A stretch of DNA of 64,000 bases, taken from the NCBI GenBank assembly GCA_002793515.1, contig PFEU01000018.1, positions 32,203 through 96,202 on the forward strand, written 5' to 3'. Shown one piece after another: positions 5,737-63,903 of this stretch. The first letter of the stretch is position 1. Every line of letters starts with the position of its first letter. The notes beneath the pieces were generated by a model. It saw only the letters and a list, made by a program, of their open reading frames with translations, searched no databases and had not been told where the DNA came from. The position numbers were made by a program, and so were the translations under genes. Origin of the DNA: Candidatus Uhrbacteria bacterium CG10_big_fil_rev_8_21_14_0_10_48_16. Lineage in GTDB: Bacteria; Patescibacteriota; Patescibacteriia; UBA9934; GWF2-40-263.

Positions 5737-6732
5737 CTACTCGTCTTCGAACTCCTCGGGGTCCTCAATCTCGACGATCGGGGACTTCGTGTGATGTCCT
5801 CGCCGAGCGAGTTCTGCCAGATCGACGGGCTTGAGGTCGACGAGATCCGGAGCGGCCATCATGGTGAGACCTTCTCCACCACCTTCCCGCAGACCCGCCA
5901 TCAGATTCTGGAGCGGATCCAGACCGAGGTTGGTGTGCCCTACCCGATCGAGGTCGTAGCCGAAGTCCCTGAGCTGACCAGAGACGAAGGCGTCCTGTGC
6001 GTACGTCGCCTTCCAGAGGCTGTGCAGGAGCTCGCCGAAGTACGTGTCGACGATCGTGATCAGCTGATCCCAGTGATCTCCGCCCGATTCCCACGGATCC
6101 ACCTCGGGGATGGGTTCGGTGGGCATGGTGGGATCTGAGGAGTATCCATGCTCATGCAGGTAGTGCTTGATCTTGGCGAATGGCCAGTTCTTGGCCTTCC
6201 ACATGTCCCATTCGTGGTGAAGTCGGGACGTAGAACTTCCCCGGGTGGGAAGCACTCCACGAACGCCTTCCTTGGTGACAACACCCATCATCTCGACGAA
6301 GGTTCCCTCGCGAGGAGGAGCGAGGACTGAGAGAGCTTGGCAACCCTTCTTGAGCCGACCGCTCGCGTCGTAGCGAACGTCGAGGCCTCCCTCCGCACTC
6401 GGAACGAACTTCGGGGCGGGCACATCGAGCGCACCCATCATGGTTCGGTTTATCCTCTTGGCGAAGAGACGCCTGAGGGTCGTCTCCGTGGCCGGGCTGA
6501 CCAGGAATTCCCAGCGGTCGGTGATGATGCCGGGGGTGATCTCCTGCTTCGTGACCGTCAGGCGGACACTCAGCGTGGCGGGAACGAGGAGCCCTCCGGG
6601 CTCCAGTCGGACCGTTCCGATTCCGAGCCTGCGGGCGAGATCGAGATCGTACTTGATCTCCTTTCGCCCACTGGATGCCTCGACCTGAGGTCGAAGCGAG
6701 ACCCTTGCGATGTGAACGGGGGGTTGAGTCAT
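5737..6732 (-). CDS. hypothetical protein, GC-rich insertion (about 60% GC vs about 46% backbone)
   Basis: Long ORF with strong coding periodicity. The ORF-track start at 6753 is a TTG. A canonical SD (GAAGGAGGTG) precedes the ATG at 6732, so MTQPPVHIARV... is the likely N-terminus. No family recognised. Confidence 0.5.
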   Translation of the reverse strand: MTQPPVHIARVSLRPQVEASSGRKEIKYDLDLARRLGIGTVRLEPGGLLVPATLSVRLTVTKQEITPGIITDRWEFLVSPATETTLRRLFAKRINRTMMGALDVPAPKFVPSAEGGLDVRYDASGRLKKGCQALSVLAPPREGTFVEMMGVVTKEGVRGVLPTRGSSTSRLHHEWDMWKAKNWPFAKIKHYLHEHGYSSDPTMPTEPIPEVDPWESGGDHWDQLITIVDTYFGELLHSLWKATYAQDAFVSGQLRDFGYDLDRVGHTNLGLDPLQNLMAGLREGGGEGLTMMAAPDLVDLKPVDLAELARRGHHTKSPIVEIEDPEEFEDE

Positions 6733-25200: not shown

Positions 25201-27438
25201 TTACTCAAAACGAATGGTTTGCCCTGTCTTTAAACTTCCTGATTGCGTTGTGGGTTTTGACTCCTGCGGTGCTGGAGCTGATTCCCTAACCGGTTGTTTT
25301 GGGGTCACGACTGGTGCCGGGCGATCAGAGGGTGATTTCGAGACTATAGGGCGTTGTGATCCAACAGATGGTTCTGGTGTCGTCCTGGCCGGGGCTGTTG
25401 TTCCTGTTTGCGCAGACGTAACCCCTCTTGAAGCATCAGGTGATTTTCGTTTCCGTTTGCGCTTGCGTTTCGTTGGATCCGATGATGTCTGAGACGGACC
25501 CGAGGGATCTGGACGTGTCTCCCCTCTTCTCTTTGCTCGAATCTTCTCAAGACAGTTCTGACAAAATAGGGGTCTTGATGGATCAAGCTTTACTCCAGCA
25601 CTAAACAGCGTGGCGCAATCAGAGCAGGTATATTCGTACGAATCTTTTTGTTTCTCTGTTGTGACTGACGGAACAGGAACAGGTTCCTTCCGTTCTTGTT
25701 TGACTGGTACAGGAATCGGCTCTGGGTCCAGAATGCGCTCAACAATAACGGTCGGCTCTCCCTCAACCGCTGGTTCGACACGAACTTCTTCCCTTGTCTC
25801 CCTTTCCGGTTTCACTAACGAACCAAGACTAATGGAAGGTTCATCAGGAAGTCGTTCGATGCTTGCTCCTTCTGACGGGCTCGGTGATTTCTCAACCTGT
25901 TTCGTTTCAGCACGACTTGCTCCACTCCGATCTGATGTTTTCCCCTTTTTCCCTTTACGTTCCTCTCGAACAATCGTAATACAATCATCACAATAGATAG
26001 GCCGAGATCGATCCAGTTCCACAGGAAGAACCACTTCCGTGTTACATCGCGTACAGTTATATTCAAACCTTGGTTTTCCGCCTGATGCTTGCGTGCTTGC
26101 CTGTTTCTTTTGTTCCGCGACCTTCATCATCTCATCCACATCCGCATTCGCCATCCCACTCCAAACAAGAATCTTGTCTTCAATCGCAGAACGTGGTTGA
26201 GCATACCGTTCTCGAGAGATCTTAATGACTTTTTGTGCTGAATTTGTGATCTGCGCAATAGGAGGAAGAGTGATGGCCGAAAATGGTTGGCTTGTCACCC
26301 CATCGATCAACAGCTTGATGTAGATATTATATTTTGGCAGGTTGATAATGTCCTCTGGGGTAAATCGTGGCATGAACTCTGCCTCCATAAACATGGCGTC
26401 CGGTGAACCTACACGAAACGTAATCATGGTTCCTACGTTTCCAAATACGGCATCACGTACCGGCTCTGTGAGCTGGGCAATATACTGGTGCGCCATAGTC
26501 AAACACAGACGATACTTTCGTGCCTCAGACAAAATACTGGCAAATGACTCAACCGCAAAGTTTTGAAATTCGTCGACGTAGAGGTAAAAATCCAATCGCT
26601 GATCTTCAGGAATATCCACACGTTCCATGGCAGCAAGTTGAATTTTCGTAATGACCAATCCACCCAACAACCGCGAATTATCCTCTCCAATACGACCTTT
26701 TGAAAGGTTAATAATGAAAATCTTTTCGGTATCCATGATCTCACGGATATTGATCGTTGATTTCACCTGCGCCACGATATTTCGAATCACTCCTGCAGAC
26801 AAGAACTGACCGATCTTATTTTGAATGGCCGCCGTTGCTTCGGTCGCATACTTTTCTGTCCAACTTGCAAACTCTGTCACCCAAAACTGTTTCACCACAG
26901 GATCCTTCACATTTCCCACCATCCGCTTTCGATATTCTGCATCCGACATCATGCGATTAATTCCAAGCATGGTCTGACCCTGGTTATCCAAAAGGGCCAA
27001 CAACGTATTGTTGAGAATGTACTCCATTCGACTAGACCACATGTTCTCCCAAATTTTTGCGAAGACCGCCATCATTCCCGATGCCACAAGATGCTTATGG
27101 CGCTCATCTACCGCCTCGAGAATATTGAATCCAACCGGATATTCAAGGTCAGCCGGGTTGAAATACACCACATCATTTAACCGCCAACTTGGGATGAAAT
27201 CGATCAATTTTTCAGCGGTGTCTCCATGTGGATCCACATAACAACACCCATGCCCTGCGTAGATATCAGACAGCGTAAGATTTTCAAGCAGAACACTCTT
27301 TCCCATACCTGTCTTTCCAATCACATACATGTGACGGCGTCGGTCGTCCGTTTTGATTCCAAACTTCGTCATCTGATTTCGGAAGTTTGTTTTCGCGAAG
27401 TAATTTACTTCGTTCTCGTGATCATGATTATATGACAT
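25201..27438 (-). CDS. TraD/VirD4-like (type IV coupling protein family) P-loop ATPase with two C-terminal zinc-ribbon repeats and a basic low-complexity tail
   Basis: Walker A YVIGKTGMGKS, Walker B LYVDEFQNF, ...HQY...; two CxxC...CxxC modules (CTRCNTE...CDDC; CSDCAT...CQNC); K/R/P/S-rich tail. Confidence 0.6.
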   Translation of the reverse strand: MSYNHDHENEVNYFAKTNFRNQMTKFGIKTDDRRRHMYVIGKTGMGKSVLLENLTLSDIYAGHGCCYVDPHGDTAEKLIDFIPSWRLNDVVYFNPADLEYPVGFNILEAVDERHKHLVASGMMAVFAKIWENMWSSRMEYILNNTLLALLDNQGQTMLGINRMMSDAEYRKRMVGNVKDPVVKQFWVTEFASWTEKYATEATAAIQNKIGQFLSAGVIRNIVAQVKSTINIREIMDTEKIFIINLSKGRIGEDNSRLLGGLVITKIQLAAMERVDIPEDQRLDFYLYVDEFQNFAVESFASILSEARKYRLCLTMAHQYIAQLTEPVRDAVFGNVGTMITFRVGSPDAMFMEAEFMPRFTPEDIINLPKYNIYIKLLIDGVTSQPFSAITLPPIAQITNSAQKVIKISRERYAQPRSAIEDKILVWSGMANADVDEMMKVAEQKKQASTQASGGKPRFEYNCTRCNTEVVLPVELDRSRPIYCDDCITIVREERKGKKGKTSDRSGASRAETKQVEKSPSPSEGASIERLPDEPSISLGSLVKPERETREEVRVEPAVEGEPTVIVERILDPEPIPVPVKQERKEPVPVPSVTTEKQKDSYEYTCSDCATLFSAGVKLDPSRPLFCQNCLEKIRAKRRGETRPDPSGPSQTSSDPTKRKRKRKRKSPDASRGVTSAQTGTTAPARTTPEPSVGSQRPIVSKSPSDRPAPVVTPKQPVRESAPAPQESKPTTQSGSLKTGQTIRFE

Positions 27439-27446
27439 GTGAATAT

Positions 27447-29189
27447 CTAGATAGGTAAATTTGGAGGGACGCTCTCTGAATCCTCTTCGGAACGTCCTTC
27501 TGAAATAGATGGTTCCACTAATCCCTGGAGCGGATCTATGTCTTCGTGCGGAGATAGCTCTTGTTCTTCTTCGACGTACCTTTCTCGCTCATCTTCAATC
27601 GTTGAAACATGTTGTTTAATCGGAGAATGAATGCGTGGAAGCGATTTTACCTGTTGCTCATCAGAAAGAGGCGCAAACGCAATCCCTGGAGGCACAAATA
27701 ACCCATCGTCTAGATCGTGAATCCCTTGATCGATCGGCATTCCCTGAGCCGCTTCTTCTCTCGCACGCCCCATACCGGACAATGTCTCTTCCAAAAAGGT
27801 AATCGGCAAGCCTGTCGGTGGTTCGGCACGTTTGGATTCGCTCTTTTTCACAAGTGGAGCCTTCATCGTAATCGTTGGGAAGTGCCACAGCGTCGCAAGT
27901 TCTTCCACATTCAAAAACACAGGAGTTGCTCCAACCCCCCAACTTCGATTCTGATACGCACTCATGAGCCGATGTTGTTTTTTTGTATACACCCAGCGCA
28001 TCCAGAAATAATCATCCTTCGGAACCTGAGGAATATAGAGCGTAAACTTATTGAAGTTCAAATGGGAATATGCACTAAACACTCCTTTCACAATGGCCGT
28101 TCGTTCTACTTTTACAAACGCATTCTTCTGCGCAACATATAACACACGGACCTTCACTCCATGACCCACCTTTGTTGCTTTTGTGAGAATGGCTTCAGCT
28201 TCATCTTTTTGTGGCAACGTAATCTTAAACGCTTTCCATGGATCATCTTCTCCTGCAGGAACGTTTGTTCCAAGAAGGTTGCTTAAATCGATTCCCGTTG
28301 CATGCTCTAACAATCCTGCAGGCCAAGAAACCGTTGAATTGAGTGTTCCAAGAAACGCACTCTGTTTCGGCTTATCCTCATCTCCATACACCTTCCGAAC
28401 ATAATCAACGCTTTTCTTTTGCCAGTCATTACTTGATGGTTGGACCAAAAACTGAATCCAGAAATGTTCTCCTGCACGCATTTTAGCGAGCTGTTCAAGC
28501 GTAAGTCCCAACGGATCTTTAATTTCCTGAGTCATTCGATCCTCAAAATCAACATATGTCCGAATAGGAAACATCTGGTTTTTATCAAGAGTCACCTCTG
28601 CTCCCCACATTTCGTGTGTGTCGTTTGGAAACTCGTTTGGAAACTTATTCGCATAATCTTCCACCTCTGAAATTTCAGCTTCAGGGTAATGCGCATAAAT
28701 TCCTGCTTCAACCACATCTCGAAATCGCGTCTGGGTTCGAACCAAAAACTGAATATACCCTTCCGTAGAAACAATCTCGAATGAGAATACCGGGTGAAGC
28801 TTTCCGTAAATCCAATGCTCCTTCCAGGTAATGGTCGACTTCGCTGCATACAAAGAAGCAAAGAGATTCTCCAACGCTTTTGGCGTCTGTTCTGTCATGC
28901 TTGGAACATCAATTGCGAGAATCGTGAATTTCAATTTCCCAACAAAAATTCCACGACGGTAGTTTAACCACATTTCTCGAAACCCCCATCCGAGCGTAAG
29001 CGCAATTGGAATCCACCCAAACCAAATGAGCAGATCAAAAAGAATGAGATCAATCGGTTGAGCAAAGAACGAGACGTTACCTGAAACCGTCTCAGTTGCT
29101 TGGCTTACGATGGGGATGGCAAGCAAAGGTAGCATAAAGATAAACCCATTGTAGCAAAAAACTGGGTTCTCACCCAGTCTTTTATTCAC
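27447..29189 (-). CDS. membrane protein of unknown function, partner of the TraD-like ATPase
   Basis: Three N-terminal TM helices then a large soluble domain and acidic C-terminus; 9-nt gap to the ATPase gene, suggesting an operon. Confidence 0.4.
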   Translation of the reverse strand: MNKRLGENPVFCYNGFIFMLPLLAIPIVSQATETVSGNVSFFAQPIDLILFDLLIWFGWIPIALTLGWGFREMWLNYRRGIFVGKLKFTILAIDVPSMTEQTPKALENLFASLYAAKSTITWKEHWIYGKLHPVFSFEIVSTEGYIQFLVRTQTRFRDVVEAGIYAHYPEAEISEVEDYANKFPNEFPNDTHEMWGAEVTLDKNQMFPIRTYVDFEDRMTQEIKDPLGLTLEQLAKMRAGEHFWIQFLVQPSSNDWQKKSVDYVRKVYGDEDKPKQSAFLGTLNSTVSWPAGLLEHATGIDLSNLLGTNVPAGEDDPWKAFKITLPQKDEAEAILTKATKVGHGVKVRVLYVAQKNAFVKVERTAIVKGVFSAYSHLNFNKFTLYIPQVPKDDYFWMRWVYTKKQHRLMSAYQNRSWGVGATPVFLNVEELATLWHFPTITMKAPLVKKSESKRAEPPTGLPITFLEETLSGMGRAREEAAQGMPIDQGIHDLDDGLFVPPGIAFAPLSDEQQVKSLPRIHSPIKQHVSTIEDERERYVEEEQELSPHEDIDPLQGLVEPSISEGRSEEDSESVPPNLPI

Positions 29190-33609: not shown

Positions 33610-34494
33610 TTACCAAGAACTGCTTGCCCCTCCTCCTCCGGAAGATCCTCCTCCAAATCCCCCTCCACCACCGAATCCTCCTCCAGAAGAACTTCCCCCA
33701 CCCGAACTCCACCAACCTCCCCCACTCCGCTTTCTTCCTTTTGGAAACGTACTGACCGAAAGAATCTTATGGAGAAATAAGGTGAACGGCACATTAATCA
33801 CCCAGGCAATCCAATCATTTCCAACACTCAACAACAAGAAAAAGGCAAGGATGGGAAGAATGGGAAATTTCTGGATTCGCGTTCGAAGATCTCTCTTAAG
33901 TGAGGCGTAAATAGCAGAGATAAAAACGAACATGAAATAGACGATAAATCCCACAACAACACTCGCAATGAAGACGGAATCCTCTTCCTCCTCCAAGGGT
34001 TGTGCGAACCCATACTCATCAGCTTCTGCTTGAATTTCTCGCGTGAGCTCATCAATGGAAAAATTAATCCCCATCTCATAGTCTCCCTCTTTGAAGTACG
34101 GAATGGCAATGGCATTCAAAATGGCAATCGAGTCTGCGTCTGTGATACGCCCCTCAAGACCATATCCTACCTCAATCCGTGCGACTCGATCCTCATACAC
34201 CACAAGGAACAACACGCCATTGTCTGATTCGTTTTGTCCAATCCCCCACGTACGAAATACCTCATTTGCATAAGACTCTAGATCTTCATCCTCAAGCGTA
34301 TTGATCGTGAGAACCCCAATTTCAGCTGTGGTCACTTCTTCCAATTGTGTAAGTTTTTGGATGAGCTCTGTTTCAAATTCAGGAGATAAAATTTCCGCCT
34401 GATCTAACACATACTCCTGAGGGGCGGCTGGAACGTTGAGCGCAAAAACCTGCAACGGAAGAAAAAGGAGCACGGCGACCAAATAGCGTTTCAT
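33610..34494 (-). CDS. TPM-domain protein (TLP18.3/Psb32/MOLO-1 phosphatase family) with a Gly-rich tail
   Basis: Signal peptide; TPM core (LTINTLEDEDLESYANEVFRTWGIG...GVLFLV...RIEVGYGLEG); C-terminal GGGFGGGG low-complexity. Confidence 0.75.
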   Translation of the reverse strand: MKRYLVAVLLFLPLQVFALNVPAAPQEYVLDQAEILSPEFETELIQKLTQLEEVTTAEIGVLTINTLEDEDLESYANEVFRTWGIGQNESDNGVLFLVVYEDRVARIEVGYGLEGRITDADSIAILNAIAIPYFKEGDYEMGINFSIDELTREIQAEADEYGFAQPLEEEEDSVFIASVVVGFIVYFMFVFISAIYASLKRDLRTRIQKFPILPILAFFLLLSVGNDWIAWVINVPFTLFLHKILSVSTFPKGRKRSGGGWWSSGGGSSSGGGFGGGGGFGGGSSGGGGASSSW

Positions 34495-40845: not shown

Positions 40846-40851
40846 AAGATC

Positions 40852-41814
40852 TTAAAAGCCTACATACATTATTTCCTCCTGTAATAGGATACCATATTCA
40901 TTCCGAGCACGCGTCTTAATGAGCGCTACGAGTTGCCCCACATCATCAGCGGTGGCTGAATCGACATTGAGCACAAAATTTCCATGAACCTCACTGACTT
41001 GGGCGCCTCCAATCTTCATTCCCTTGAGATCTAGTTGATCAATGAGCCAACCAGCAGAAAGATGCCGTTGCGACTGCATCTCTAAAGGTATATCGAGTTT
41101 ATCCTTAAGTCGTTGCAGTTCTTCGTCGCTTTGGATCTCATAATTTTTAAACATACATCCCGCTGAGCCCGCCCCAAGAGGTTGAGAAGTTTTTCGCTTC
41201 ATCAATTTGTCATCAATCTCCATTTTCAGTTCCGTCGCATCCCCTTCTTCAAGTTCAAATACGACGGAAAGCACAATGTCCTGTGAATGCTTAATCGCTG
41301 ACTCGCGGTATCCAAATTTCAAATCTTCTTTTTTCAACTCAATCACTTCTCCGTCACGAAGAACATCTACGCTCACCAGATAATCCTTCATCTCCCCGCC
41401 AAAGCACCCAGCATTCCCACGCACCCCTCCCCCGATGGTTCCCGGAAGGGTGATCGCCCAAGAGAGACCTTTGAGTCCCAGCATGGATGTTGCGCGTGCA
41501 AGAGCTGAAGCAAGTACCCCTGCGTCTGATCGTACACGCGTTCCTTGAATTTCATACGTCCGCATGGCCATTTTAATCATGATGCCATCAAACCCTTTAT
41601 CTGACACAAGGATGTTTGATCCTCCGCCAAACACAAACGTTTGCACGTGTTCTCTTTTTGCGAGTTCAAGGACGCTCTTGATCTCTTCGATGGAACGGAC
41701 CTCGACAAACCATTTCGCAGGGCCTCCAATACGAAAATTCGTATGCTTCCCCATGGGTTCTTGTTCCGTAACGCGCGCCCCAACAATTTCTTGAAGTTGT
41801 TCTGTGATCGTCAT
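40852..41814 (-). CDS. murB: UDP-N-acetylenolpyruvoylglucosamine reductase
   Basis: FAD-binding GGGSN motif and MurB C-terminal domain. Confidence 0.85.
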   Translation of the reverse strand: MTITEQLQEIVGARVTEQEPMGKHTNFRIGGPAKWFVEVRSIEEIKSVLELAKREHVQTFVFGGGSNILVSDKGFDGIMIKMAMRTYEIQGTRVRSDAGVLASALARATSMLGLKGLSWAITLPGTIGGGVRGNAGCFGGEMKDYLVSVDVLRDGEVIELKKEDLKFGYRESAIKHSQDIVLSVVFELEEGDATELKMEIDDKLMKRKTSQPLGAGSAGCMFKNYEIQSDEELQRLKDKLDIPLEMQSQRHLSAGWLIDQLDLKGMKIGGAQVSEVHGNFVLNVDSATADDVGQLVALIKTRARNEYGILLQEEIMYVGF

Positions 41815-44576: not shown

Positions 44577-44736
44577 CTAAACCTAGCGATTTTCTGCCCC
44601 GTTGTCAATGCTCAGAGCACGACGTAGAATAGAGAATACACGGTAGGGATAAACCTCCAACTGACACCAAAACCTATGTTGTAATAAGAAAGACATGAAA
44701 ACGGACTTAATCCATGTCTTTTTATGTACAACACCT

Positions 44737-45978
44737 ATGAACATCTCTACCTTTGATCCAGATCTCTCTACCGCCCTCAACAAAGAACTTGCTCGCCAAC
44801 AAGAAGGCCTCGAAATGATTCCTTCTGAAAACTTCGTTTCCCCAGCCGTTCTTGAGGCACTGGGATCGATCGCCACAAATAAGTATTCTGAGGGGTACCC
44901 AGGAAAGCGCTATTACGGAGGCTGTCAAGAAATCGACGTCATCGAACAACTGGCGATCGATCGTGCAAAAAAACTTTTTAATGCAGAGCACGTAAATGTT
45001 CAACCCCTTTCTGGGGCTCCAGCGAACCTTGCGGCGTATGTCGCTCTTGTCCCTCCCGGTGGAACGATTCTTGGAATGGACCTCTCACATGGAGGACATC
45101 TCACCCATGGACATCCGGTCACTCACATCGCAAAAGTCTGGAACTTCATTCGCTATAAAACCACACCTGAAGGGCTTATCGATTACGACGAAATCGAGCG
45201 CATGGCGCGCGAACATAAGCCAAATTTGATCCTTGTTGGATATTCTGGATACTCCCGTGAAATCGATTACGCACGCATCAAACGCATTGCCGATGAGGTC
45301 GGATCGCTCACCATGGCGGACATGGCCCACATCGCTGGGCTTATTGCTGCAGGAGAAATGAATAATCCTGTTCCAATTTTTGACGTTGTTACGACGACAA
45401 CACATAAAACCTTGAGAGGACCACGAGGAGGAATGATTCTCTGTAAAAAAATCCATAAAAAAGCCATCGACAAAGCCGTCTTCCCAGGACTTCAAGGGGG
45501 GCCTCATGAGAACGTCATTGCAGCGAAGGCCATTGCGTTTAAAGAAGCGATGCTTCCAGAGTTTAAAACATACGCTCAACAAATTAAGAAGAACGCAAAA
45601 GTGCTCGAGGGAGTTTTTCAGTCACGCGGATACAATCTCATGTTTGGCGGAACGGATAATCACCTCCTTCTGGTTGATGTGACCCCGAAAGGCGTGACTG
45701 GTCAACAAGCTGAAATTGCGCTCGATAAGGCTGGAATCACCGTCAATAAAAACATGATTCCAGATGACCCTCGATCCCCAATGGATCCATCAGGAATCCG
45801 ACTTGGAACTCCCGCTGTGACCACACGGGGAATGAAGGAGGAGGAGATGAAGCAGATCGGTGTCTGGATGGACGAGGCGATAACGATGTGGCAAGACGAT
45901 GCAAAACTCGAAACCATCCGCCAGGAAGTAAAAACCATGACCAACCGTTTTCCGCTTTATCCAGACTTGACGTACTAA
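44737..45978 (+). CDS. glyA: serine hydroxymethyltransferase
   Basis: PLP motif ...TTTTHKTLRGPRGG..., MIPSENF N-terminus. Confidence 0.9.
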   Translation: MNISTFDPDLSTALNKELARQQEGLEMIPSENFVSPAVLEALGSIATNKYSEGYPGKRYYGGCQEIDVIEQLAIDRAKKLFNAEHVNVQPLSGAPANLAAYVALVPPGGTILGMDLSHGGHLTHGHPVTHIAKVWNFIRYKTTPEGLIDYDEIERMAREHKPNLILVGYSGYSREIDYARIKRIADEVGSLTMADMAHIAGLIAAGEMNNPVPIFDVVTTTTHKTLRGPRGGMILCKKIHKKAIDKAVFPGLQGGPHENVIAAKAIAFKEAMLPEFKTYAQQIKKNAKVLEGVFQSRGYNLMFGGTDNHLLLVDVTPKGVTGQQAEIALDKAGITVNKNMIPDDPRSPMDPSGIRLGTPAVTTRGMKEEEMKQIGVWMDEAITMWQDDAKLETIRQEVKTMTNRFPLYPDLTY

Positions 45979-45989
45979 ACACAAACACC

Positions 45990-46127
45990 CCTCAGGGCTG
46001 TCTCAAAACTCGCGATCTCGACTTTCACGGGCGCCCGTCGACCCCACTCTCCCTACGTTTAGTAGGGTTCGTGGGGATCGACAGCCCGTTCAAGCCGATC
46101 TCATCGAGTTTTGAGACAGCCCCCTCA
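45990..46127 (+). mobile_element. MITE-like 128-bp element with perfect 18-bp terminal inverted repeats (GGGCTGTCTCAAAACTCG / CGAGTTTTGAGACAGCCC) and a 5-bp direct duplication CCTCA, inserted into the glyA terminator
   Basis: TIR-L 45995-46012, TIR-R 46105-46122; CCTCA at 45990-45994 and 46123-46127. Removing the element and one CCTCA copy restores CACCCC-tcac-GGGGTG-TTTTTT, a canonical terminator. The interior is GC-rich with nested palindromes (CGGGCGCCCG; CCCTAC-gttta-GTAGGG). Confidence 0.55.
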
Positions 46128-46141
46128 CGGGGTGTTTTTTG

Positions 46142-46738
46142 TTACAACGATTTTATAAACGCTTTCAGTTTCTCAAATGCTCGACCGCGGTGACTGAGAC
46201 GATTTTTTTCTTCGTCTGTCATTTGAGCAAATGTCTGATCAAATCCAGATGGTTGAAAGATGACGTCGTAAGGAAGTTTTGAACGAGGCGTTCCTCGTGG
46301 CTCAACAATCACCTCTCCCTCCACCAATCCTTCAAACGTCCATGATTCATGTTGGGGAGATACGAGCGCGGCCACCGAATGAAATGTCGCTCCACGCTTT
46401 CCCTCTTCCACACCCCTCAGTTGCTCAAGGGTGTGCTTGATCAGTTGTTCATCACTCGCCCCTTCTCCTGCCCAACGCGCGGTATAGACTCCCGGTCGGC
46501 CATCAAGCGCATCAATCGTGATGCCTGAATCATCCGCCACTGCCCACTCTCCCGTTTGCTGAGTCACAAACTGCGCCTTCTTAAGCGCGTTCTCGACAAA
46601 GGTTGTTCCATCCTCCACAACATCATCCATGACCCCTACTTCCTCTGCACTCAAAACCTCAACTCCTGCATCCGCAAAAAGCTGTTGAAGCTCTTTTATC
46701 TTCCCCACATTATGAGTCGCAAATATCAATCGTTTCAT
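46142..46738 (-). CDS. rdgB: non-canonical purine NTP pyrophosphatase (RdgB/HAM1)
   Basis: FATHNVGKIKEL...Ham1 motifs. Confidence 0.85.
   Translation of the reverse strand: MKRLIFATHNVGKIKELQQLFADAGVEVLSAEEVGVMDDVVEDGTTFVENALKKAQFVTQQTGEWAVADDSGITIDALDGRPGVYTARWAGEGASDEQLIKHTLEQLRGVEEGKRGATFHSVAALVSPQHESWTFEGLVEGEVIVEPRGTPRSKLPYDVIFQPSGFDQTFAQMTDEEKNRLSHRGRAFEKLKAFIKSL

Positions 46739-62688: not shown

Positions 62689-63903
<1,215 letters not shown>

Follow-up and report, generated by a model that had tools for sequence, protein, structure and literature searches.

ERIC/IRU sequences are 127-bp imperfect palindromes of enterobacteria, and Correia elements are found in Neisseria; both duplicate TA, occur in multiple copies per genome and are compatible with terminator or RNA-stability roles, as is the element described here. 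We know of no dedicated transposase for either of them. REP/REPIN sequences, associated with RAYT, are hairpin doublets with a conserved structure; to our knowledge, REPINs carry GTAG at their outer ends, and neither they nor HUH/Y1 transposition in general create target duplications. Bacterial MITEs, in turn, are short, non-coding, intergenic elements with perfect terminal inverted repeats (TIRs) and a target duplication, which fold into a hairpin over their whole length and vary in presence or absence between close relatives. They are found in over half of prokaryotic genomes, and 97% of them are genus-specific (PMC11602168).

All these MITE traits are found in a 128-nt foldback from a Uhrbacteria genome, at positions 45995-46122 of the 64-kb stretch of DNA that we analysed (hereafter, the window), which has perfect 18-nt termini and CCTCA on either side. 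The element most resembles ERIC/IRU and Correia sequences in size (128 vs ~127 bp), full-length imperfect palindromic build, location in presumably transcribed spacers at gene ends, unusually conserved sequence and internal-insertion variants, but it differs from them in duplicating CCTCA and in its host, a CPR bacterium, and we know of no sequence similarity with them. Unlike with typical MITEs, we found no parent IS among the genes of the window or at the loci sharing the 18-nt terminus, the element is single-copy in ~76 kb, and its terminus is common to elements with unrelated interiors in other phyla. Conversely, the restriction of its core to Uhrbacteria matches the genus-specificity of MITEs (PMC11602168). 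We consider, with a probability of about 0.7, that the element is a non-autonomous MITE-like foldback of a Uhrbacteria-endemic family, recently inserted into the loop of a terminator and mobilised in trans by a DDE-type transposase.

The left TIR, GGGCTGTCTCAAAACTCG, occupies positions 45995-46012 of the plus strand, and the right TIR, at 46105-46122 on the minus strand and reading CGAGTTTTGAGACAGCCC on the plus strand, is its exact reverse complement (18/18 complementary positions), as the preliminary description of this DNA had reported. Motif searches with GGGCTGTCTCAAAACTCG retrieved only these two matches in the 64-kb window, even allowing for three mismatches; none of 100 shuffles yielded two matches, and 64 kb of DNA should contain by chance only around 1.4e-4 perfect 18-nt inverted pairs whose members are no more than 150 nt apart. 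CCTCA occurs at 45990-45994, where it spans two stem bases and three loop bases of the terminator, and again at 46123-46127, as determined from the sequence, a direct-repeat measure and the alignment with an empty site containing it only once. The claimed duplication of CCTCA on both sides was therefore upheld, whereas its length is 5 bp only on the assumption of symmetric termini: owing to the C-run at the right end, the flanking direct repeat can extend to 7 nt at most (CCCCTCA), and from 3 to 7 bp are formally possible. The element is well within the size range of MITEs (~50-500 bp), has a GC content of 0.59, compared with 0.47 for the window, and is non-coding, the sole ORF crossing it being a long mechanical read-through frame from inside glyA.

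The empty site was found in L048, a contig from a sister genome with DNA 94.5-95% identical over 7 kb and a 99% identical GlyA. Here, the spacer between glyA and the Ham1 gene is of only 30 nt, reads ACACCCCTCACGGGGTGTTTTTT and contains the empty-site sequence TAAgtataaACACCCCTCACGGGGTGTTTTTTGTTACAACG, with one CCTCA. Pairwise alignment of this contig with the window showed a single gap of exactly 133 nt, corresponding to the element plus one CCTCA. The existence of this allele with a single CCTCA supports the insertion of a non-autonomous transposable element, which had been proposed from the letters of the window. More distant relatives, with GlyA identities of 90% and 87%, contain other short terminator hairpins at this position and lack the element, and a gain in the lineage of the window is therefore the parsimonious reading; a precise loss of the element in the sister genome is formally possible. 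The element is not an assembly artefact, because assemblies of the same strain, at least 10 of them independent (from ENA, JGI and Logan), carry it in identical form, together with an identical GlyA.

Insertion might also have occurred without any transposase, if during replication a nascent strand stalled at the terminator hairpin copied a palindrome located elsewhere and returned through the microhomology of CCTCA, which would then appear as a target duplication. This template switching is in line with a reduced genome and with called window genes among which no transposase was seen, with a direct repeat that can be read as 3 to 7 nt, and with nested palindromes such as that of 34 nt in the L052/L061 copy and the multilayer one in L013, both described below. 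However, the inserted DNA is bounded exactly by perfect 18-bp inverted termini, no donor sequence was found within the 76 kb searched, and dispersed repeats of other genomes have this terminus as their boundary, which is not explained by a random switch; we thus deem this origin distinctly improbable.

The host site lies between glyA, for serine hydroxymethyltransferase (44695-45978, plus strand; from the ORF list, Pfam SHMT and Uhrbacteria SHMT homologues), and a convergent gene of the Ham1/RdgB family (46142-46738, minus strand; from the ORF list and Pfam Ham1p_like), which have a bidirectional terminator in common. By its GlyA homologues, the organism belongs to Candidatus Uhrbacteria, within the CPR/Patescibacteria. 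In the empty site of L048, this terminator is a hairpin with an ACACCCC/GGGGTGT stem and a TCAC loop (-14.0 kcal/mol). The element splits it, as the preliminary description had noticed: the 5' half of the stem, ACACCCC, is at 45985-45991 (plus strand), and the 3' half and its T6 tract occupy 46129-46140 (plus strand; from the sequence, the fold and a terminator scan), with GGGGTGT at 46129-46135 and T6 at 46135-46140. In the minimum free energy fold of the window sequence, the old terminator stem, of 9 bp, still closes around the element hairpin just before the U-tract. Additionally, a simple terminator scan retrieved a local alternative hairpin, GCCCC-CTCAC-GGGGT, followed by T6 (46119-46133, plus strand). 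From this closure of the stem and the local hairpin, it is likely that the insertion was nearly neutral for glyA and the Ham1 gene, and termination of both convergent genes is probably kept.

The gene content of the glyA neighbourhood is variable among relatives, because the Ham1/rdgB gene is missing beside glyA in L052/L053/L061 and in L062 (L052 4243-4330; L062 2947-3057). As to glyA itself, the ORF starting at 44695 encodes 427 aa, compared with mostly 411-415 aa, and a few longer products, in the Uhrbacteria relatives listed below 99% identity, which cover 94-99% of this ORF. Because the relatives are of 413 aa, the true start of glyA is probably around 14 codons downstream of the annotated one, leaving 44695-44736 as excess.

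The element entered the 4-nt loop of the bidirectional terminator in the lineage of the window, in our reading through a staggered cut of the target, whose repair would have duplicated CCTCA. The enzyme would have been supplied in trans, most likely a DDE-type transposase recognising the termini; we hold this to be the most likely mechanism, with moderate confidence. As the element is itself a hairpin, a transcript containing it could still adopt a single long stem-loop structure, with the old terminator stem at its base and the U-tract next to it; the shorter local hairpin GCCCC/GGGGU beside the U-tract could also form. Since termination is probably kept, a terminator loop would be among the few harmless landing sites of a genome in which this spacer has only 30 nt.

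The whole 128 nt can adopt, on either strand, the form of one long imperfect hairpin, with arms that align at 49 of 65 columns, agreeing with the highly structured 92-nt core proposed earlier. Folding energies were -93.7 kcal/mol (z = -13) for an RNA of 163 nt including the element and -43.8 kcal/mol (z = -10) for the element as DNA. Inside the termini, a conserved core of 98 nt (46010-46107, plus strand), with the motif TCGCGATCT...ACGGGCGCCCG...ATCTCATCGA, was delimited by blastn-short, alignments, matches to nhmmer and covariance models, and identity values. The core contains an inner foldback (46029-46087, plus strand), identified from the sequence, a search for the tip motif and the fold, and conserved in L050; the outermost 8 nt of the element's terminus recur at the right end of this foldback, as GACAGCCC. 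Within the inner foldback, the sequence reads as an apex hairpin, CCCTAC-GTTTA-GTAGGG (46051-46067, plus strand).

A short-word BLAST of the core against the fetched loci produced a 29-nt match, with 93% identity, in L050. Homologous foldbacks occur in the spacer between murB and hpf of L050 and L052/L061, directly after the murB stop codon, and they are homologous to the window element over the core (46010-46107). Two additional Uhrbacteria species are represented by these contigs; over alignable DNA, the identity of each with the window is ~71%, and that between the two is 81.5%. The outer stems of these homologues differ from those of the window element and are AT-rich, and they lack a flanking duplication. 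The element is absent from the murB-hpf site of the window strain, L048 and L060, and the contig of L062 ends inside murB, leaving the spacer outside its reach. In the window, this site (40846-40855) has 6 nt from the murB stop to the hpf (S30AE) start, inside a 10-nt palindrome, TAAGATCTTA, and it is here that L050, L052 and L061 have the element. Searches with a covariance model and an nhmmer profile added no copy to those above, either in the window or among the remaining Uhrbacteria loci, nor was there a second copy in this genome within the 64-kb window and its ~12-kb flanks (~76 kb). The search for additional copies that the preliminary description had advised was thus successful only in part, with homologous elements in related species, at murB-hpf, and none in the 76 kb available for the genome of the window.

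Identity in the core between the window and L050 was of 76/98 positions (77.6%), which is not significantly different from the background of 70.8%. Between L050 and L052, it reached 93/98 (94.9%) over a background of 81.5% (P about 1e-4), indicating that the core is more conserved than the neighbouring genes. The outer stems of these two orthologous copies (L050 361-489 and L052 337-487) are of 19 bp and 17 bp, respectively, and ~60% identical, yet each of them reads as perfectly self-complementary around a core that is 95% identical, which suggests either copying from arm to arm or very strong selection. The L052 copy also contains within one arm an extra 34-nt palindrome, AACCCGCCCGAACGAACGTTCGACGGTCGGGCGG (371-404), identical in L061 (~5914-5947) and absent from L050 and from the window copy, and thus is a palindrome inserted into a palindrome. 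We discarded the idea that the core had been inserted at TCGA with a duplication of TCG; it had no independent support, the junctions being homologous in all three copies.

In a three-sequence alignment, 98.6% of the pair cells were paired, and 14 of 48 base pairs had changed on both sides with pairing kept. This degree of pairing was reached in none of 500 shuffles, and slid controls did not come close either. The changes were nearly all from Watson-Crick to Watson-Crick pairs (17 cells, compared with one G.U), with a one-sided G.U change in one pair only. With three sequences, these results are suggestive and no statistical proof, but they do show that the pairing of the hairpin has been kept through compensatory change. 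We could not deduce the strand from the G.U pairs, since the window has three of them on its minus strand, whereas the homologues have two on the plus strand.

A functional structured RNA conserved in Uhrbacteria, either a 3'-UTR or intercistronic hairpin or an sRNA, with the termini as its closing helix, would be expected to show such covariation, which strongly supports one long hairpin. Conservation of the core above that of the neighbouring genes between L050 and L052 points in the same direction, as does its predicted co-transcription at both loci, in the same strand, with the upstream gene whose stop codon it directly follows. Nevertheless, the element occupies two unrelated loci, is flanked by a target duplication, and is missing both in the sister genome, with its 95% identity, and in several relatives at the orthologous murB-hpf site. 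Besides, G.U intermediates are usual in the compensatory change of RNA, and here they are virtually missing. A search of the whole window against Rfam 15 did not produce any match at the gathering threshold, and the element and its two homologues yielded only chance-level matches at E<=10. The preliminary description had considered that its proposal would fall with a known RNA family and no empty site anywhere; instead, there is an empty site in L048, and Rfam returned nothing meaningful. In particular, the lack of the element in a genome with 95% identity excludes a conserved housekeeping ncRNA. Together, we judge a primary RNA function highly improbable, and the element may have acquired an RNA role secondarily.

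The predominance of Watson-Crick changes fits a single-stranded DNA hairpin stage better than the classical double-strand cut-and-paste. Mobility as a single-stranded DNA hairpin, in the style of REPIN/RAYT or of IS200/IS605 derivatives, would involve an HUH tyrosine enzyme recognising the folded DNA and its insertion into single-stranded hairpin loops, such as that of an extruded terminator. The whole element is indeed a foldback, its outer stem keeps structure and not sequence, its both-sided changes almost lack G.U intermediates, and its target here is a hairpin loop; likewise, in L022 and L044 a bare terminus hairpin sits inside flanking inverted repeats. REP-like features also appear, since the apex reads GTAGGG on both strands and, in L024, L029 and L032, the elements bounded by this terminus hold GTAG and GC-hairpin units typical of REPs. 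However, the clean CCTCA duplication is at odds with this type of transposition, GTAG is at the apex instead of at the outer ends as in REPINs, and no Y1 or RAYT gene is found among the called genes of the window. Assignment to the REPIN/RAYT systems was rejected for these same reasons, and we regard an HUH-mediated origin as unlikely compared with mobilisation of a MITE-like element by a DDE-type transposase.

To examine the distribution of the terminus, we scanned for the exact 18-mer and obtained 18 loci in the GTDB species genomes, none from Uhrbacteria, 19 loci in JGI metagenome contigs, a collection that excludes the contigs of the window strain, and none in IMG/VR, where the core pattern did not give any match either. 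The 18 GTDB loci are, by our own estimate, close to the chance expectation for this collection, and most singleton matches lie within ordinary ORFs and look like chance. However, a reverse-complement partner occurred within 250 nt in ~15 of the 37 loci, compared with ~0.4 expected by chance, as estimated. Short palindromes unrelated to our element are delimited by the 18-nt terminus in Acidobacteriota (242 and 97 nt), in a Clostridiales MAG (126 nt) and in one Hyphomicrobiales MAG, which contains three dispersed copies of ~203 nt whose homology begins exactly at the terminus, defining sharp repeat boundaries. The terminus is also found bare, as the 32-nt palindrome GGGCTGTCTCAAAAC-TC-GTTTTGAGACAGCCC, which in L022 and L044 is enclosed by inverted repeats.

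The interiors of these elements are unrelated, with a GC content mostly near that of their hosts, and they share only ~15 nt, (G)GGGCTGTCTCAAAAC, with conservation stopping after ~15-18 nt. A flanking direct repeat was missing in 12 of 14 same-terminus elements from other phyla, and among all the terminus-bounded elements such repeats occur only in the window and in L015. In the window copy, a terminus of wide distribution is thus joined to a core specific to Uhrbacteria. No full-length IS with these ends, and no other Uhrbacteria copy, was retrieved by the exact 18-mer from the GTDB species genomes, the JGI metagenomes or IMG/VR, nor was there a cognate IS or transposase at the 37 loci from genomes and metagenome contigs, and the viral scan was empty. 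Likewise, the called genes of the window did not include any transposase or recombinase domain. PLSDB plasmids, searched by BLAST for the element and for the bare terminus palindrome, and phages, searched for the palindrome, produced chance-level matches only, and literature searches for the terminus string retrieved only primers and a CRISPR spacer.

Several of these loci have a complex organization. L013 contains at 430-671 a 242-nt multilayer palindrome, with an RNA fold of -164 kcal/mol, made of several small hairpin modules nested between the same termini. L024 (2084-2209), L029 (1591-1709) and L032 (2047-2184), and also L016, L035 and L036, contain inverted pairs of TGTAGCGGCG plus GC-rich hairpins, which look like REP/REPIN units and are at varying distances from the terminus. 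The context of the 18-mer in SUG319 consists only of stacked hairpins and a UDG gene. In L017 (Streptomyces sp. NPDC048737), the 18-mer is within a res-like array of GTCTC(R)AAAAC half-sites (230-365), which includes the 26-bp site GTCTCGAAAACC-AA-GGTTTGTGAGAC and is directly upstream of a gene with a Resolvase domain (369-1034).

This array in front of a Resolvase gene, and the bare 32-nt form in other genomes, which is a 15+2+15 palindrome similar to a crossover site, would suit a phase-variable switch in which half-sites for a serine recombinase (resolvase/invertase) surround an invertible segment of 92 nt. However, ~17 exact matches are to be expected by chance, that in Streptomyces being one of them, each terminus of the element has only one half-site, and we found no recombinase gene in the window. 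Moreover, the segment is nearly palindromic, so its inversion would change almost nothing, and the observed event is a presence/absence with duplication and not an inversion. We thus rejected the membership of the element among invertons, and find such a switch scarcely credible.

The ends of known transposons offer further resemblances. The first 18 nt of the element are similar to the IR of Tn21-type transposons, GGGGTCGTCTCAGAAAACGG (PMC7371123, PMC13367494), and Tn3-family elements and TIMEs also share with it G-rich tips and a duplication of 5 bp (here CCTCA, with an ambiguity of 3-7 bp). Nevertheless, IRs in the Tn3 family are of ~38 bp, starting with GGGG and ending in ACGNTAAG, whereas conservation across the elements sharing our terminus spans only ~15-18 nt. 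We rejected a Tn3-derived origin, as a TIME, owing to the mismatch over the inner 20 nt, which comprise the TAAG motif; the called genes of the window did not include a Tn3 transposase either. The IR of ISApl4, from the IS1016 group of the IS1595 family, is GGGGCTGTACTAGA (PMC12561309); it agrees in 10 of 14 positions, the first eight among them, with GGGGCTGTCTCAAA, the consensus end of our element family. The element also conforms to this group in having a short IR (14-18 bp) with GGGGCTG... ends, although its left end in the window has only three G's. Members of the IS1016 group generate AT-rich duplications of 7-9 bp, usually 8 bp (PMC12561309); an IS1016-type origin was rejected on duplication length, which here is of 5 bp if symmetric and at most 7 bp, and the duplication is GC-rich. 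The IRs of Tn21-type transposons and of the IS1016 group, as well as the resolvase half-sites, all resemble the ends of the element, and none fits fully. Integron attC sites were also discarded, by inspection, because TCAAAAC and GTTTTGA violate both boxes (R'' RYYYAAC and R' GTTRRRY), and there is no cassette or integrase context around the element among the called genes of the window.

Several phyla have the terminus module GGGCTGTCTCAAAAC, either by itself, as a 32-nt palindrome, or around unrelated palindromes. The window copy may be a modular, nested construct, in which the structured Uhrbacteria core would be combined with such a terminus module of 15-18 nt; both modules would belong to a palindromic class so far unrecognised that would home to the loops or centres of other hairpins, such as terminator loops and other palindromes, via a single-stranded stage, with its arms mutually corrected. 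If true, this would explain both the perfect but fast-evolving outer stems and the compensatory changes restricted to Watson-Crick pairs. We consider it unlikely, and favour a MITE-like foldback mobilised in trans by a DDE-type transposase.

CPR/Patescibacteria genomes are small and densely packed, and our case, cleanly documented by an allele with the element and one without it, by a duplication and by homologues at another locus, shows that they still receive mobile DNA. MITEs are already known as a kind of element; the novelty lies in the present family and in its activity, here documented for a CPR genome, and in a full-text literature search we found no paper describing MITEs in CPR/Patescibacteria, the only match just naming both terms. 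The location of the element suggests that mobile DNA may survive inside a terminator loop, when a hairpin insert leaves termination intact. The family could be used as a presence/absence marker for Uhrbacteria populations, and it is a small natural test case for the upkeep of arm complementarity in long palindromes. Additionally, the conservation of the core above the level of genes and the presence of the terminus across phyla are leads to a hidden transposase or to a structural role as RNA or DNA.

We made a few other observations in the window. The look-up of a 404-aa ORF near its right end (62689-63903, minus strand) gave no record. A TrwB/TraG-like coupling-protein ATPase (PF10412) is encoded at 25201-27438 (minus strand), amid housekeeping genes, adjoining a gene for a DUF8128 protein (27447-29189, minus strand). 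Finally, positions 33629-33703 contain, inside an ORF, a run of CCT/CCA-rich direct repeats of 15-30 nt that would code for a proline-rich stretch.
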